Assembly: GCA_000146045.2 (NCBI GenBank)
Contig: BK006941.2
Coordinates: 736,001 to 800,000 of the forward strand
Direction of reading: 5' to 3'
DNA from: TPA_inf: Saccharomyces
Taxonomy: Eukaryota
Length of the DNA stretch: 64,000 bases
Shown piece by piece: positions 27,762 through 34,299 of the stretch; positions within the stretch are counted from its first letter, which is position 1; the number at the start of each line of letters is the position of its first letter. A program made the translations under genes and the position numbers. The notes below the pieces were generated by a model. It made no database searches. It saw nothing but the letters and a program-made list of their open reading frames with translations, and was not told the DNA's origin.

Positions 27762-29606
27762 TTACATCTCAACACTGTCGATGGAATAGTCCTTCTTGGA
27801 CAACTTATGTCTCAAGCCCTTACCCCAGTAAGAAAATGCAAAAGGTAAAGCAATCATAGCAGTGGAGATGAAAGCCAACAACCAAGAACCCCAGTGCAAA
27901 TTCAATTTGTGGTACATTTGAATGGTAAACAAGGGGAAGGCAGCACCACCGGCGGATCTTAAGAAAACCTTTGTAGCCAGAGCACTGGATGCGTATTGGA
28001 CGTAGCAATCAATAATGTAATTATTCAATGAATAATAAATCAACACCATACCGAAACCAAAAGCTAAACCAGCTGAAGCTGGACCAACCCAAATAATATG
28101 TTTATAAGCGGTAGCACCCAGGATCCATAGAGCAATTGCAGCAAATGGAGCACCGATCTTAGCACCTAGCAAACGATCTTCAGGAGTAGGTTTACGCTGT
28201 TTGACAATTTGTAAATATTTGTTTTCACAGTAGAAAGTTGTGGCTAACGCCCAAAGAGCACCGATAACAATAGGAATAAACATTAAACCCACAAGGTTAT
28301 CTTTGTAGCCATATAGTTCACCGAAAATGACAGGGAAGGCAAAGAAGAACGCATATAGTAGAGAGTAAATCAAACACACGTAGAAACAAGTGGCAACTAG
28401 AACAGGTTCAGTGACAGCGAAGTACAAAGGTCTCAACAGACAAGCCCTCATCATTTCACTCATACTGACACCTTGCGCTTCCTGCTCAGTCATAATCTTG
28501 GGATTACCAGTTTCCTTTCTTAATCTAGCAGCCTTTCTCTTCAAGATAACTGGAGCGTACGTTTCTGGGATGGCAGAAGATATGATCCACATAACACCTG
28601 CAAAGGCCATATTGACCCAGAAAATCAGGTCCATACGTCCGGTAGAAACGGAAATAAAACCGTTAACTAGTGGACCAACAACGGGACCAACGTAAGGAGC
28701 AAAAGCGAAGAAAGCAATAGCCTTACCTCTTGTTTCACTTGGGAACATATCGGCAATAGACCCACCAACTAAACACAAACCAGATGATGACCAAACACCA
28801 CATAAAAATCTACAAGCTAAAAGACAACCTAGATTTGGAGCTAAGGCGCAAGGGATATTGAAGATGACATAAAGACCCATAGAAACAAAGTAAGCAACTC
28901 TTCTACCGTAAAGATCACTAACAGGAGACCAAATCAAAGGACCCAGCGAGAACCCAATAACCATTAAAGAACATGATAAAATAGCGGCTTCCATACCTAC
29001 ATGGTATTTCTTTTCAACGGTTCCCAACCCACCACTGATACAAGCAGAACCGTAGGCAACGCAAATAACTAAGATGGACAACAGGACAGTGTAACTCCAA
29101 CGAACCCATGAGGGCCAATTGTGAGGGTTTTCTGGATCACCAGTAACAAAAGTAACGAATTCGATCTCTGGATCTAGCTCGTTTTCACCGCTCTGGTCTT
29201 CACGTTCTTCAGTTTCTTCCTCTTCCATTTCTTCTTTACCTGTGGATGAGGAATTGGTAGCGGTACGGTTCAATTGCTTTGTTCTAGTACGAGATAAGGC
29301 AGAGGCGGTTCTACCCATAGATTGTAAGGTAGCCACTGGAACCAGCCCAGATGGTGTTTCCATGGTATATTCTTCAGGGAAAATGTTATTCTTAGCAGTT
29401 TGTGGCGCATTGATATCAGGCACTGGGGCGGCTGAAGTGACACCTAAATCTTGTAAAGACTTGACGGTCTCAGTCTTAGTTAACTTAAGTTGATTTGCAC
29501 GAGAGTTGGTTTTTGAGGGGACATACTGTTGAGGTTGTTGGCCCTCAACGTCCACCATGGAAGTGTTTTGTGAGTTGAATGAAACAACAGATTCTTGATC
29601 ACTCAT
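27762..29606 (-). CDS. TPO2: MFS (DHA1 family) polyamine/drug:H+ antiporter, 614 aa
   Basis: 12-TM MFS transporter with a Ser/Thr-rich hydrophilic N-terminus. 614 aa. TPO3 paralog. Confidence 0.9.
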   Translation of the reverse strand: MSDQESVVSFNSQNTSMVDVEGQQPQQYVPSKTNSRANQLKLTKTETVKSLQDLGVTSAAPVPDINAPQTAKNNIFPEEYTMETPSGLVPVATLQSMGRTASALSRTRTKQLNRTATNSSSTGKEEMEEEETEEREDQSGENELDPEIEFVTFVTGDPENPHNWPSWVRWSYTVLLSILVICVAYGSACISGGLGTVEKKYHVGMEAAILSCSLMVIGFSLGPLIWSPVSDLYGRRVAYFVSMGLYVIFNIPCALAPNLGCLLACRFLCGVWSSSGLCLVGGSIADMFPSETRGKAIAFFAFAPYVGPVVGPLVNGFISVSTGRMDLIFWVNMAFAGVMWIISSAIPETYAPVILKRKAARLRKETGNPKIMTEQEAQGVSMSEMMRACLLRPLYFAVTEPVLVATCFYVCLIYSLLYAFFFAFPVIFGELYGYKDNLVGLMFIPIVIGALWALATTFYCENKYLQIVKQRKPTPEDRLLGAKIGAPFAAIALWILGATAYKHIIWVGPASAGLAFGFGMVLIYYSLNNYIIDCYVQYASSALATKVFLRSAGGAAFPLFTIQMYHKLNLHWGSWLLAFISTAMIALPFAFSYWGKGLRHKLSKKDYSIDSVEM

Positions 29607-30252
29607 ATTTGTTTTGTGTATTATTTTTGTGATTAGTTATTAGATGGAATTAAAGGAAAAATATCAATGGACAAAAAATATTAGGGTGTAGAAATAAAGA
29701 ATAATAGCAGGGCTTTGATAAAAGAATGTATCAATTACTTTTTGAAATTAAAGTTAAAATTAAAATTCAAACCGAAAAAAAAAAAAAATTAAATATTAAA
29801 CTTGATATAGTAGGAGAAGGAAGTTGTATATTGTTCTCTATAAACACAAACAATAAAATGATATATTTGTTTTCTTATTTCTTCTTGATGTCTTCAGGAA
29901 AAAAGAACATAAACAAATACAAAAAAATCCTAGTACGAAACCTCAAAAGGGTGTATGCGCAATGTATATATATAGCAAGAAAAAAAAATAAACAGTGGCA
30001 TTACAGTGCATGCGGATGGCAGTGTTCTTCGGTGGCTTTTTCGAAAAACCTAGAATGCGTTTAAAAGACTCAGACACCTAAGCAGAATATGCGAATGACT
30101 CGTTCAGTAAAATGCGACGCGACAGTTTGTTTTCGTTCTGCGCTGCTGTGTTCTCTATTCTTTTGAGATGAATTTAACGGCTATGGAATCATCTCGAGAA
30201 ATCGGTTCTAGTAAGGCACCAAGACATTATGTCCCTCGGGAGGAGAAGGGCG

Positions 30253-30258
30253 CACGCG
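30253..30258. promoter_or_regulatory. ACGCGT (MluI cell-cycle box core) inside the GC-rich TPO2-CBF2 intergenic block
   Basis: Motif seen in sequence (GCGCACGCGTCAGG). Whether it functions as an MBF site is inference. Confidence 0.25.
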
Positions 30259-31428
30259 TCAGGCTTCCACGACGTCCGCCGTGCATGCGCTCTCGCATTT
30301 TTAAGGTTTAGTGCGGCAGGCGACTGCGCTGCGGCCAGCCCGTGAGACCACCCGAGGGAATTTGAGTAAGCGCGCCCATTGCGGGGTTTTTGCGGTTTGC
30401 GCTGTTTTCCGCACGAGGTTTCTCCGGACACAGTTAAGCAGTATATTTCACTCGGAAGCGCCGGAAAATTTTTTTAAGCGCAAATATATTCAGGTAAGCA
30501 GCAAAAAAATACTTTTTCCGGTGGCCCGTGATGTGTTTGTAACAGCTTCTGCGGTACTTTGGGCGGCTAAATGGCAAATAGATCAGGGGAAGGGTTTTTG
30601 CATAGGTACAAAATAACCGGATTTTGGGTAAGATTCGATCTTCGGCACTTGTGGCGAAGTAAAAGTGTTGAAAAAGTTCGCGTAATAATAGTGTTAGCCG
30701 TTTCAGCTTCGTCCATAAAGTACATATCCACAACTCTCATGGTGCGAAGTACAAACATTGAACGGCAGCTGTCTTGCTCAGCTAGTGGTATGTAAGCAGC
30801 CGCATTCTATTTTTATTTTCGTGCCTTTAAGTGTTAAAACCTGAGGCAGATTTTTTATTTTTTTGCATTCCCCTTCCTTTTTGCCGTAATGGCGCATTCA
30901 GTGCTGATATATTTATACTTCAATGGTGCTTCTCCTTACTTTTCTTATAGAAATAAACATCAAAACATGAACCTCAAATTCATCCGAAAATGACTGCGGC
31001 CACTCACCTTGCTTCTTCCCCACAAATATTTGTGTTCTCTGCTTTCTTTGTGTGTACTTTGTCTTGCTCTATATAACTTTCTCTCTGCTGCTGAGTCTTC
31101 AAATAGGTAGATTGATGCCTGTGGACTTTTATACAAAGGAGTTTGAGTGATTACATTCAAGATAAACGTGAAAAGTTATTATTATATCTTATGCTAAACA
31201 ACAGTGTAATTGCGTTTGTTAAGCACAATCTCAAAATAATGCGCTAACAGTGGTGCGCATACTGCCATTTGTTATGGGCTATAATCGGATAGTGTATTCT
31301 TCTTGTTTGGTTATGTATCTCAACATCCAGGTATCCGTTACCCCACTTTGATACCAGGAACCTTTCGCGTTTTCTCTCGCTTTTATTTTTTTACCGCATA
31401 CAAACAAACAAGAAAAAGTAGAAAACAT

Positions 31429-34299
31429 ATGAGATCATCGATTTTGTTTCTACTAAAATTGATGAAAATTATGGATGTTCAGCAACAGCAAGAAGCTATG
31501 TCATCAGAAGATAGGTTTCAGGAACTGGTGGACTCCCTAAAGCCAAGAACTGCGCATCAGTACAAGACCTACTATACTAAGTACATACAATGGTGTCAGC
31601 TCAATCAAATTATACCGACACCGGAGGACAATTCTGTAAATAGCGTCCCCTATAAAGACCTGCCAATATCTGCTGAACTGATACATTGGTTTTTGTTAGA
31701 TACATTAATAACCGATGATAAGCCTGGAGAGAAAAGAGAAGAGACTGAAGATCTTGATGAGGAGGAGGAGAATTCATTCAAGATCGCTACGTTGAAGAAA
31801 ATTATAGGCAGTCTCAATTTTTTGTCAAAATTGTGCAAAGTTCATGAAAATCCAAATGCTAATATAGACACAAAATACCTGGAGTCAGTCACCAAGCTTC
31901 ATACCCATTGGATAGATTCACAAAAGGCAATCACCACTAATGAAACAAATAACACAAATACTCAAGTGCTGTGTCCACCATTATTGAAAGTGTCTTTGAA
32001 TTTATGGAACCCAGAAACTAACCATCTCTCTGAGAAATTTTTTAAAACCTGTTCTGAAAAATTAAGATTCCTGGTGGATTTTCAATTAAGAAGTTATTTG
32101 AACCTTTCATTTGAAGAAAGATCAAAGATACGATTTGGTTCCCTCAAGCTCGGTAAAAGGGACAGAGACGCTATAATTTATCATAAAGTAACTCATTCGG
32201 CGGAAAAAAAAGATACGCCGGGCCACCATCAACTCCTTGCATTATTACCCCAAGATTGTCCATTTATCTGCCCTCAAACTACATTAGCTGCATATTTGTA
32301 TTTAAGGTTCTATGGTATACCATCTGTTTCGAAAGGGGATGGCTTTCCCAATTTGAACGCTGATGAAAATGGCTCACTTTTACAAGATATTCCCATACTA
32401 AGAGGCAAATCACTGACAACTTATCCCAGAGAGGAAACATTTAGTAATTATTATACAACCGTGTTTAGGTATTGCCACTTACCTTATAAAAGAAGAGAAT
32501 ATTTCAACAAATGTAACCTTGTTTACCCAACTTGGGATGAAGACACTTTTAGAACATTTTTCAATGAAGAAAACCATGGAAATTGGTTAGAACAACCTGA
32601 GGCCTTTGCGTTCCCTGACAAAATACCGTTCGACTTCAAGAAAATCATGAACTTCAAATCGCCCTACACTTCGTATTCTACAAACGCTAAAAAGGACCCT
32701 TTTCCGCCTCCAAAGGATTTATTAGTTCAAATATTTCCGGAGATTGATGAATATAAAAGACATGATTATGAAGGTTTGTCTCAGAATTCAAGGGATTTTC
32801 TAGATTTAATGGAAGTTTTACGAGAAAGATTTTTGAGCAATCTACCATGGATTTACAAATTCTTTCCTAATCATGATATATTCCAGGACCCCATTTTTGG
32901 AAATTCCGATTTTCAATCATACTTCAATGACAAAACTATACATTCAAAGGGTTCACCCATTTTATCATTCGATATACTACCAGGCTTTAATAAAATCTAT
33001 AAGAATAAGACAAATTTTTACTCACTCTTAATAGAAAGGCCTTCGCAGTTGACATTTGCTTCGAGTCATAATCCAGATACACACCCCACTCAAAAACAAG
33101 AATCTGAGGGGCCATTACAAATGAGTCAACTTGATACTACACAATTAAATGAATTATTGAAGCAACAGAGTTTCGAATATGTGCAGTTCCAAACACTTTC
33201 TAATTTCCAAATTTTATTATCGGTATTCAATAAAATTTTTGAGAAATTGGAGATGAAAAAATCTTCAAGAGGCTATATTTTACATCAGCTTAATTTATTC
33301 AAAATTACCTTGGATGAAAGAATTAAGAAATCTAAGATTGACGATGCCGATAAATTTATACGTGATAATCAGCCCATTAAAAAAGAAGAAAACATTGTGA
33401 ATGAAGATGGGCCTAACACATCAAGGCGGACAAAGAGGCCGAAGCAAATTAGATTACTCTCAATTGCGGATTCCTCCGACGAATCCTCCACGGAGGATTC
33501 AAATGTATTCAAAAAGGACGGTGAATCCATCGAAGATGGCGCATATGGAGAAAATGAAGATGAGAATGACTCTGAGATGCAAGAGCAGTTAAAATCTATG
33601 ATAAACGAACTTATAAACTCCAAAATAAGCACTTTTTTACGGGACCAAATGGATCAATTTGAATTGAAAATAAACGCTTTATTAGATAAAATTCTTGAAG
33701 AAAAAGTCACTCGTATTATCGAGCAAAAACTTGGTTCACACACGGGGAAGTTTTCAACGTTGAAGAGGCCACAACTATACATGACGGAAGAACACAATGT
33801 TGGATTTGATATGGAAGTTCCTAAAAAACTTAGGACCAGTGGTAAGTACGCAGAGACTGTGAAAGATAATGATGATCATCAAGCCATGTCAACTACTGCA
33901 TCGCCGTCTCCTGAGCAAGATCAAGAAGCAAAGAGCTATACTGACGAACAAGAATTTATGCTGGACAAATCCATAGACAGCATAGAGGGAATCATTCTTG
34001 AATGGTTCACCCCAAACGCTAAGTACGCCAACCAATGCGTGCATTCAATGAACAAATCAGGTAACAAGTCGTGGAGAGCTAATTGTGAAGCTTTATACAA
34101 GGAAAGAAAATCAATTGTTGAATTCTATATTTATTTGGTAAATCATGAGAGTCTCGACAGATACAAAGCAGTTGATATTTGCGAAAAATTACGAGATCAG
34201 AACGAAGGTTCATTTTCGCGCTTGGCAAAGTTCCTAAGGAAGTGGAGGCATGACCATCAAAATTCATTTGATGGTCTGTTAGTATATCTATCTAACTGA
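31429..34299 (+). CDS. CBF2: CBF3 kinetochore complex subunit Ndc10, 956 aa. The first in-frame ATG at 31303 would add 42 aa.
   Basis: The 956 aa form starting [21 protein letters not shown] matches YGR140W. The ORF track gives the longer 998 aa frame. Confidence 0.88.

Follow-up and report, generated by a model that had tools for sequence, protein, structure and literature searches.

The promoters of HO, FLO11 and ENA1 have large multi-factor upstream regions and belong to highly regulated, TATA-containing stress genes. A different type of intergenic element located 5' of a regulated gene is represented by SRG1-SER3 and the NDC80 LUTI, loci which are not known to be constrained at the sequence level along the body of the element. 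URS1-type sites drive meiotic long undecoded transcripts at NDC80, a kinetochore gene as is CBF2. The closest described system is the acetic-acid UAS (ACRE) of TPO3, which extends from -790 to -590 and carries the motif GAGGGG at -673 (Mira et al. 2011, PMC3167633). The TPO3 ACRE was shown to be sufficient when placed on a heterologous promoter, a result that pertains to that element and not to the block upstream of TPO2 which is described here. This block (30070-30660) is very probably a distal cluster of UAS and URS elements of TPO2 that acts as double-stranded DNA. A dense regulatory module for TPO2 had been one of several options put forward in a first-pass annotation of the sequence, and it is now supported by selection in a footprint pattern, by conserved factor motifs, by the position of published ChIP primers inside the block and by the parallel with the TPO3 UAS.

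All positions refer to the window, i.e. the whole 64-kb stretch of DNA that was analysed. TPO2 (27762-29606, minus strand) and CBF2/NDC10 (beginning at 31429, plus strand), both of which had been named correctly in the first-pass annotation, are separated by 1822 bp of intergenic DNA. GC contents that had been counted by hand as about 65% (30241-30360) and 55% (30361-30420) were exact on recomputation (0.650 and 0.550), and the mean of the window is 0.378 (sd 0.060; 120-bp windows). The highest 120-bp value of the entire 64 kb, 0.667, is located at 30239-30358. The ratio of observed to expected CpG is 1.23 in the block versus 0.81 window-wide. In every TPO2 orthologue examined the GC peak is retained at -725 to -821 from the ATG.

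The block resembles the TPO3 ACRE in several respects. Both elements precede, at similar distances (-790 to -590 in TPO3; about -620 to -815 for the GC core of TPO2), a polyamine/acid exporter gene that is activated by Haa1, and the two genes form one WGD pair. Each overlaps the GC maximum of its intergenic region: the TPO3 peak at -712 to -593 falls onto the ACRE, and in TPO2 the peak spans -752 to -633 and a Haa1-type core is found at -780. A minimal Haa1 site is present in each, and in vivo binding of Haa1 has been described for both. The upstream sequences of TPO2 and TPO3 are not alignable, however, and the TPO2 block carries GCGGGG and CAGGGG but not the top-affinity motif GAGGGG of the ACRE. 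The analogy is positional and functional, not one of homology. A comparison of S. cerevisiae with S. mikatae shows unusual conservation of the TPO3 upstream region as well. According to Mira et al. 2011 (PMC3167633), the TPO2 promoter contains GAGGGG; the TPO2 upstream sequence analysed here lacks it.

As in promoters of the HO, FLO11 and ENA1 type, the block is separated from the TATA box by hundreds of base pairs (it sits 100-700 bp 5' of the conserved element at 29965-29972), lies in a long intergenic region and contains clustered conserved footprints for several classes of factors; it differs from them in that sites for factors other than Haa1 are predicted from sequence. With SRG1-SER3 and the NDC80 LUTI it shares the intergenic location 5' of a regulated gene and, with the promoter of the latter, a URS1-like core. 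Upstream regions of the TPO orthologues of Vanderwaltozyma polyspora, Torulaspora globosa and Naumovozyma castellii showed no alignable similarity to the block. T. globosa does not have any gene between CBF2 and TPO, and for this reason the relic of a gene was rejected as an origin of the block.

Conservation was determined in a sensu stricto alignment, as the first-pass annotation had proposed. In the core of the block (coordinates of all features are compiled in Table 1), 247 of 411 positions are invariant in seven Saccharomyces species. When six species are compared, 61% of core positions are invariant versus 31% of the four-fold degenerate sites and 73% of all coding positions of TPO2; the corresponding values for intergenic controls are 15% (TPO2-LSB1) and 10% (CBF2-proximal half of the same intergenic region). 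Beyond the moderately conserved distal extension, i.e. past 30660, the invariant share drops to about 10%. Conservation thus defined runs unbroken towards TPO2, including its TATA box and leader, and collapses towards CBF2. Invariance of 61% over 411 bp in six species is probably more continuous than would be expected for a typical yeast promoter. Invariant runs of at least 7 nt occurred 12 times versus 4.5 times expected, and none of 2000 shuffles reached 12. The block is under strong purifying selection which is arranged as short footprints. Within it, S. arboricola carries an insertion of 34 nt and S. kudriavzevii a duplication of 8 nt, a tolerance that fits a modular element. This interspecies conservation makes 30070-30660 more than a compositional oddity.

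Table 1. Features of the TPO2-CBF2 intergenic region, ordered by position in the window; distances with a minus sign are relative to the TPO2 ATG.
Feature	Position	Strand	Remarks
TATATATA, likely TPO2 TATA box	29965-29972	-	-359 to -366; conserved
Core conserved non-coding block	30070-30480		464-874 bp 5' of TPO2 ATG
Sole conserved copy of TAAGCAG	30079-30085	+	AAGCAG in 7/7 species
Putative Gcn4/Bas1-type half site TGACTC	30096-30101	+	6/7 species; within invariant run ACTCGTTCAG
GC-rich core flagged by first-pass annotation	30230-30420		about 60-67% GC; includes 120-bp maximum of window
TCCCTCGG, left arm of inverted pair	30232-30239	+	part of invariant run TATGTCCCTCGG (30228-30239)
Putative MCB-type core ACGCGT	30254-30259		kept in 6/7 species
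CCGAGGGA, right arm of inverted pair	30352-30359	+	part of invariant run CCACCCGAGGGAATT (30348-30362)
Haa1 ChIP amplicon, 100 bp	30356-30455		inside block; includes GCGGGG at 30381
Haa1-responsive-element core GCGGGG	30381-30386	+	7/7 species; CCCCGC in TPO2 orientation, from -780
Third match to minimal Haa1 motif, CCGGCG, predicted only	30459-30464	-	inside CGGAAGCGCCG; 6/7 species
Distal extension, moderately conserved	30481-30660		38% invariant in 6 species
GGCGGCTA, URS1-like core	30562-30569	+	7/7 species, invariant
Second Haa1-type core CAGGGG	30584-30589	+	6/7 species; overlaps STRE-type AGGGG

Conserved matches in the block comprise STRE, MCB, TGACTC, the URS1 core and the minimal Haa1 motif. 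The latter, (G/C)(A/C)GG(G/C)G, occurs four times in the block, and three of these matches are conserved (GCGGGG, CAGGGG and CCGGCG). Affinities of Haa1 for the 9-mers GGCGCGGGG, which ends in GCGGGG, and GGCCAGGGG, which ends in CAGGGG, are 13.6 nM and 4.3 nM, respectively (Mira et al. 2011, PMC3167633). The motif as such is not enriched in the block (four observed versus 3.0 expected for matched composition, P = 0.36), so the link to Haa1 stands on the conservation of the sites and on published ChIP rather than on motif statistics. The 'TPO2 promoter' ChIP primers of Kim et al. 2019 (PMC6379682, supplement) map to 30356-30381 and 30426-30455, and binding of Haa1 to this amplicon is reported to be inducible by acetic acid; in the same study, induction of TPO2 was almost lost in a haa1-delta strain. 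Unpublished binding of Haa1 at TPO2 is also cited by Mira et al. 2011 (PMC3167633), who reported an 18.7-fold induction of the gene by weak acid. Expression of a published 1926-bp TPO2 promoter-lacZ fusion depends on Haa1, and an integrated TPO2-lacZ reporter was induced more than 12-fold by acetate. A published 510-bp TPO2 promoter gave only 1.3-fold of the 4.6-fold mRNA response to potassium starvation; this clone ends at 30115 and is devoid of almost the entire block. The literature searched contained no deletion of the block and no acid-response truncation series for TPO2, and nothing informative on YGR139W or on Ume6, Nrg1, Tup1, Mig1 or Rim101 in connection with TPO2. Haa1 covers just two or three 6-bp sites of the block.

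Several repeats had been singled out in the first-pass annotation, and their positions were in part shifted. The four copies of TAAGCAG do exist, each one nucleotide downstream of the position given (plus strand, 30079, 30435, 30495 and 30793), and exceed a naive expectation of about 0.08. However, simulating the region with a Markov-1 model yielded at least four copies of some 7-mer in 1.7% of runs, and among actual 760-bp windows of this DNA about 8% contain such a 7-mer; P is about 0.02 after look-elsewhere correction. The copies at 30435 and 30793 are specific to S. cerevisiae, and that at 30495 is common to S. paradoxus only. TAAGCAG was rejected as a functional repeated motif, with three of four copies not conserved, and the weight that had been placed on it is not justified. 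The same applies to the inverted repeat CAGTATATTT / AAATATATTCAG, which is present and imperfect as had been noted, with its arms at 30439 and 30482 instead of 30438 and 30481; its pairing requires an indel and is not beyond chance. ACGCGT was found at 30254 rather than 30253, and the recurrence of GCGCTG at 30140, 30326 and 30399 (previously 30138, 30325 and 30397). Closer to TPO2, an invariant ATATATA (29966-29972) sits in TATATATA, followed by the invariant run CAAGAAAAAA; TATATATA is likely to be the TPO2 TATA box. By its agreement with the URS1 consensus, GGCGGCTA is a putative Ume6-type site.

What else the block might be was weighed against these data. That a small protein-coding gene was overlooked here, or that the block is a relic of composition that evolves neutrally, is hardly credible. 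The four open frames reported previously, 30189-30431 (minus), 30311-30616 (plus), 30434-30733 (minus) and 30571-30795 (plus), were recovered under a bacterial start rule; they are stop-free over 74-101 codons on both strands, and the first of them is open in four of seven species. Nevertheless, all four, as well as a YGR139W-like ORF, are interrupted in three or more of the seven species, either by a stop or by a frameshift, the block contains dispersed indels of 1, 2, 4 and 8 nt, and a Pfam search of the four frames yielded no match. Their earlier dismissal as artefacts of GC content was correct. The relic, a further option of the first-pass annotation, is refuted by invariance at twice the level of four-fold sites. 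Very high conservation in the absence of coding potential might instead point to selection on the fold of a structured non-coding RNA, and the nested invariant inverted repeats (TCCCTCGG...CCGAGGGA around GCGCACGC...GCATGCGC) would suit such an RNA. Further, RNAalifold compared with column shuffles, which do not control for dinucleotides, gave z = -3.35 (30070-30480) and -2.16 (30220-30430) on the minus (TPO2-sense) strand versus -0.5 to +1.6 for TPO2 coding controls. This signal may reflect invariant palindromic or inverted protein sites; all eight predicted TCCCTCGG/CCGAGGGA pairs never vary and provide no information on RNA structure. We regard a structured RNA as highly improbable. Folding of the single sequence was no more stable than that of dinucleotide shuffles (z = -0.26 on the plus and -0.31 on the minus strand). 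None of 93 consensus pairs showed compensatory changes, and the covariation term was unfavourable (+1.7 kcal/mol), with the limited power of seven close species. Both the percentage of paired positions and the covariation score equalled the means of pair shuffles. The structure conservation index was only 0.6-0.7 despite the high identity of the sequences, and varying positions, counted from the pair table, disrupt and preserve predicted pairs with about equal frequency. Rfam 15 (E <= 10, 29000-32000) returned five weak chance matches, none of which was inside 30070-30660, and ARAGORN found no tRNA in the region. The 8-nt and 34-nt species-specific insertions and the lack of similarity beyond the genus Saccharomyces also speak against a selected fold. 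The structured transcript offered as one option in the first-pass annotation finds no support in Rfam, folding energy or covariation. RUF20-23 were discarded as an identity, as they are located on chromosome VI.

It is unlikely that a regulatory non-coding transcription unit occupies the block or starts from a promoter within it, with the RNA or the act of transcription as the working principle, for example by SRG1-SER3-like interference on TPO2 or as a URS1-driven meiotic 5'-extended isoform of TPO2 or CBF2. The conserved sequence would then consist of a promoter together with factor sites. The invariant URS1-like core, the length of the intergenic region and the distance of the block from both ATGs are in line with such a unit. 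Yet transcripts of the interference type can do without conservation at a near-coding level over 400 bp or more, inspection by eye revealed no canonical TATA element in the block, and no mention of a SUT, CUT, XUT or LUTI near TPO2 or CBF2 was found in the literature searched; neither Malabat 2015 nor Parker 2018 lists the genes of this locus in its supplement. A transcription unit would moreover supplement a module acting at the DNA level, not replace it. Regulation mainly of CBF2/NDC10 (e.g. in G1/S or meiosis via the MCB and URS1-like sites), or of both divergent genes, would be compatible with the shared intergenic region and with the conservation of ACGCGT (30254) and of the URS1-like core (30562), but is decidedly unlikely. 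The block is 770-1360 bp away from the CBF2 ATG, and some 650 bp in between are poorly conserved (10% invariant); a conserved TTTCGCGT that belongs to CBF2 itself precedes the gene by about 60 bp (31363-31370). In addition, the CBF2-TPO intergenic region of the pre-duplication species Torulaspora globosa measures just 744 bp in total, and an analogous GC-rich UAS is present at TPO3 even though no copy of CBF2 adjoins that gene. The regulatory target appears to be TPO2 rather than CBF2. Finally, the Haa1 sites account for just a few base pairs of the roughly 410-bp block, which is almost as conserved as coding sequence and has at least 12 invariant footprints and nested invariant inverted repeats. 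On these grounds the block might be more than an array of factor sites and specify a non-coding transcript that is conserved and either weakly structured or bound by protein, or else form an enhanceosome-like DNA assembly of fixed geometry for TPO2 and perhaps CBF2, which we consider improbable; the enhanceosome-like variant would integrate acid stress with cell-cycle or meiotic inputs.

With a distal UAS/URS cluster of TPO2 as the preferred reading, the following mode of action is proposed. Under weak-acid stress Haa1 would bind GCGGGG (30381), CAGGGG (30584) and possibly CCGGCG (30459), and from the block it would drive the TATA-containing core promoter of TPO2, giving rise to the reported 12- to 19-fold induction. 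TGACTC, ACGCGT, the URS1-like core, the TCCCTCGG/CCGAGGGA pair and sites of the CGG/CCGGA type most likely bind further activators or repressors, which would set basal repression and mediate other inputs. The choice among the Haa1 sites and the identities of the other factors are inferred; the conservation with its footprint pattern, the conserved motif matches and the position of the ChIP primers are shown, and Haa1-dependent induction is taken from the literature. The GC-richness suggests a nucleosome-covered, highly regulated promoter. Elements of this type are ordinary; the block is unusual in its size and degree of conservation, and it does not represent a new class of biology.

TPO2 is among the genes most strongly induced by Haa1 and serves as a standard read-out of the weak-acid response of yeast, a response of importance in food spoilage and lignocellulosic fermentation. 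The ultraconserved block of 400-600 bp is missed by the '500 bp' or other short TPO2 promoter clones in common use, which is relevant to the design of reporters and biosensors, and its many invariant footprints that are not assigned to a factor are ready targets for mutagenesis.

Protein searches placed the GC-rich block between TPO2, whose 614-aa product was 100% identical to the database Tpo2p, and the divergent gene CBF2/NDC10. Orthologous intergenic regions of six more species (S. kudriavzevii, S. uvarum, S. mikatae, S. arboricola, S. eubayanus and an S. paradoxus-type contig, the Cbf2 protein of which groups with S. paradoxus Cbf2p) were retrieved via CBF2 and TPO2 protein searches and contig look-ups. 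The sensu stricto alignment proposed in the first-pass annotation was run on these and S. cerevisiae, and conservation lay well above that of TPO2 four-fold degenerate sites and flanking intergenic DNA: positions ~30070-30480 were conserved almost column by column and the extension to ~30660 more weakly, while the CBF2-proximal 650 bp were barely alignable. In six species, 61% of core positions (30070-30480) were invariant, as against 31% of TPO2 four-fold degenerate sites, 15% of the TPO2-LSB1 intergenic region, 10% of the CBF2-proximal part (30661-31330) and 73% of the whole TPO2 coding sequence. By these fractions the patch is under strong purifying selection and is no compositional relic, an option entertained earlier. 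The core holds 12 invariant runs of 7 nt or longer (4.5 expected if scattered), a clustering that has the pattern of adjacent protein footprints. Two insertions within the block, 34 T-rich nt in S. arboricola (aligned to ~30468-30476) and, in S. kudriavzevii, a tandemly duplicated 8-nt ACGGCTAT (~30176), indicate that spacing changes are tolerated at some points.

Features of the TPO2-CBF2 locus (window positions; conservation in seven species unless stated)
Feature	Position	Strand	Reading	Conservation
TPO2	27762-29606	-	coding sequence	
Divergent intergenic region	29607-31428		1822 bp, contains the block	
112-codon ORF	29726-30064		taken to be dubious YGR139W	4-17 stops in each other Saccharomyces species examined
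ATATTGTTCTCTATAA-A-CACAAACAATA	29828-29855		possible TSS-region or 5'-leader element	all but one of 28 positions invariant
TATATATA	29965-29972		likely TPO2 TATA box	conserved
TAAGCAG	30079, 30435, 30495, 30793		probably chance repeat	first copy only
TGACTC	30096		presumed Gcn4/Bas1-type half site (motif resemblance)	6/7
GCGCTG	30140, 30326, 30399			
Open frames	30189-30431, 30434-30733	-	no genes	broken in at least three species
Open frames	30311-30616, 30571-30795	+	no genes	broken in at least three species
TCCCTCGG...CCGAGGGA	30232-30239 / 30352-30359		outer inverted repeat	invariant or nearly so
GCGCACGC...GCATGCGC	30250-30257 / 30284-30291		inner inverted repeat	invariant or nearly so
ACGCGT	30254		presumed MCB-type core (motif resemblance)	6/7
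GCGGGG	30381		Haa1 minimal site	7/7
CCGGCG	30459	-	Haa1 minimal site	6/7
GGCGGCTA	30562-30569		presumed URS1-like core (motif resemblance)	7/7
CAGGGG	30584		Haa1 minimal site; includes a presumed STRE-type AGGGG (motif resemblance)	6/7
TTTCGCGT	31363-31370		presumed MBF/SCB-type motif	6/7
CBF2 start	31429	+	annotated ATG	S. cerevisiae only
GAGATCATCGA	within 31429-31441		11-mer	invariant

The composition reported in the first-pass annotation was exact (65.0% GC at 30241-30360, 55.0% at 30361-30420); mean GC of the window is 37.8%, and 30239-30358 is the highest-GC 120-bp stretch within the 64 kb. The motifs it listed are present with small shifts in position: all four TAAGCAG copies and ACGCGT had been placed one base off (the latter at 30253), and GCGCTG at 30138, 30325 and 30397. 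The rarity ascribed to TAAGCAG was overrated, as some 7-mer was found four times in 1.7% of Markov-simulated versions of the region, and the same held for ~8% of actual 760-bp windows from this sequence. Since its first copy alone is conserved, chance is the preferred reading of the repeat. The small inverted repeat noted with it is imperfect and found no support.

Haa1, the weak-acid-stress activator, recognizes (G/C)(A/C)GG(G/C)G, with affinities of 4.3 nM for GGCCAGGGG and 13.6 nM for GGCGCGGGG, and TPO2 is induced 18.7-fold in a Haa1-dependent manner (Mira et al. 2011, PMC3167633). ChIP of Haa1 at the "TPO2 promoter" gives an acid-inducible signal, and TPO2 induction is almost wholly lost in haa1-delta (Kim et al. 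2019, PMC6379682). The ChIP primers in the supplement of that study map to 30356-30381 and 30426-30455; the assay therefore falls within the conserved GC-rich core and spans the invariant GCGGGG. Reported reporter data include Haa1-dependent expression from a 1926-bp TPO2 promoter-lacZ fusion, more than 12-fold acetate induction of an integrated TPO2-lacZ reporter, and, for a 510-bp promoter, only a 1.3-fold response where the mRNA had responded 4.6-fold to potassium starvation. The upstream end of the 510-bp fragment maps to 30115, so that nearly the whole block is excluded from it. The highest-affinity core GAGGGG is said to be present in the TPO2 promoter (Mira et al. 2011, PMC3167633); GAGGGG/CCCCTC was absent from the whole intergenic region, where only GAGGGA (twice), GCGGGG and CAGGGG occur. 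As Haa1 motifs in the block did not exceed composition-matched expectation (4 vs 3.0, P = 0.36), motif presence alone proves little.

Conservation, footprints and the position of the ChIP primers favour one option of the first-pass annotation, a regulatory module for TPO2: in all probability, the block is a distal regulatory region of this gene, acting as DNA. Under weak-acid stress Haa1 would bind its sites in the block and activate the TATA-containing TPO2 core promoter ~400 bp downstream; other footprints would presumably bind further activators and repressors. From the ChIP amplicon and the conserved sites we infer that these Haa1 sites mediate TPO2 induction; the identities of other factors at the footprints are likewise putative. 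Sharing of the block with CBF2 is a minor possibility. Conservation runs on from the block towards TPO2 and collapses towards CBF2, which has its own TTTCGCGT ~60 bp upstream of its ATG; the block is therefore assigned to TPO2. TTTCGCGT fits the published G1/S, Cln3-dependent expression of CBF2. The URS1-like GGCGGCTA, roughly halfway between the genes, may point to mitotic repression of the Ume6 type, or to induction in meiosis, of TPO2, CBF2 or an upstream transcript; a literature search found no Ume6 connection to this locus.

A protein-coding block is contradicted by scattered 1-, 2-, 4- and 8-nt indels and the S. arboricola insertion. The four open frames exist as first described and were rightly regarded as no genes: like the YGR139W-like ORF, each is broken by frameshifts or stops, and no translation matched Pfam. 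A structured transcript, also suggested earlier, received no support. Rfam 15 (E <= 10) gave nothing inside the block and ARAGORN no tRNA; the S. cerevisiae sequence showed no gain in folding stability over dinucleotide shuffles (z = -0.26 and -0.31 for the two strands); of the 93 pairs that RNAalifold predicted for the TPO2-sense strand, none had a compensatory change, and the covariation term was unfavourable; and in pair counting, percentage paired and covariation score equalled pair-shuffle means. Minus-strand alignment energy did fall below column shuffles (z = -3.35; TPO2 coding controls -0.5 to +1.6), but this shuffle does not preserve dinucleotides, and the helices involved are the invariant inverted repeats TCCCTCGG/CCGAGGGA and GCGCACGC/GCATGCGC and two sites containing CCGG, of a kind that palindromic or paired protein-binding sites would be just as likely to give. 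We count the signal as unexplained and not as evidence for RNA. The two repeats lie one inside the other within the GC core; about 0.6 9-bp inverted repeats are expected by chance in 411 bp (back-of-envelope estimate). A regulatory transcript may start in or cross the block; the literature and supplements searched held no mention of transcripts at the locus, and RUF20-23 were dismissed as its identity, being located on chromosome VI.

Two neighbouring annotations deserve comment. The YGR139W-like ORF overlaps both the TATA box and the upstream region of TPO2; phenotypes seen on deleting it would thus stem from damage to the TPO2 promoter. ATATTGTTCTCTATAA-A-CACAAACAATA is found between the TATA box and the TPO2 ATG, 222-249 bp from the latter. 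The S288C-type CBF2 ATG is replaced by GTG, GCG, GAG or ATA in the other six species, whose orthologues are annotated as 930-942 aa from a start further downstream (956 aa in S. cerevisiae). GAGATCATCGA, beginning two bases after 31429, looks more like a promoter or leader element than codons, and the annotated N-terminus may include 14 or more surplus residues.

The upstream region of the paralogue TPO3 could not be aligned with the block at any point. It is likewise unusually conserved (S. cerevisiae vs S. mikatae), with a GC maximum (59%) at -712 to -593 and GAGGGG at -673; the maximum overlaps the acetic-acid UAS (ACRE), mapped to -790 to -590 (Mira et al. 2011, PMC3167633). Every Saccharomyces TPO2 orthologue examined has a GC peak (62-67%) at -725 to -821 and CCCCGC at -751 to -836. 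TPO upstream regions of V. polyspora, T. globosa and N. castellii showed no similarity to the block. In pre-duplication T. globosa the 744-bp CBF2-TPO interval is gene-free, which argues against a gene relic. Gene order supports TPO2 and TPO3 as a WGD pair: TPO2 retains CBF2 and VPS62 upstream, S. cerevisiae TPO3 has TDA6 (VPS62-like) upstream and NCA2 downstream, and T. globosa has VPS62-CBF2-TPO-NCA2-LSB1 in a single row.

The observation holds up and has biological meaning, but its explanation is ordinary. What stays of interest are the block's many invariant footprints without an assigned factor. The TPO2 promoter was already known as a Haa1 target; what is unusual about its UAS region is the high GC content, the length and the strong conservation.
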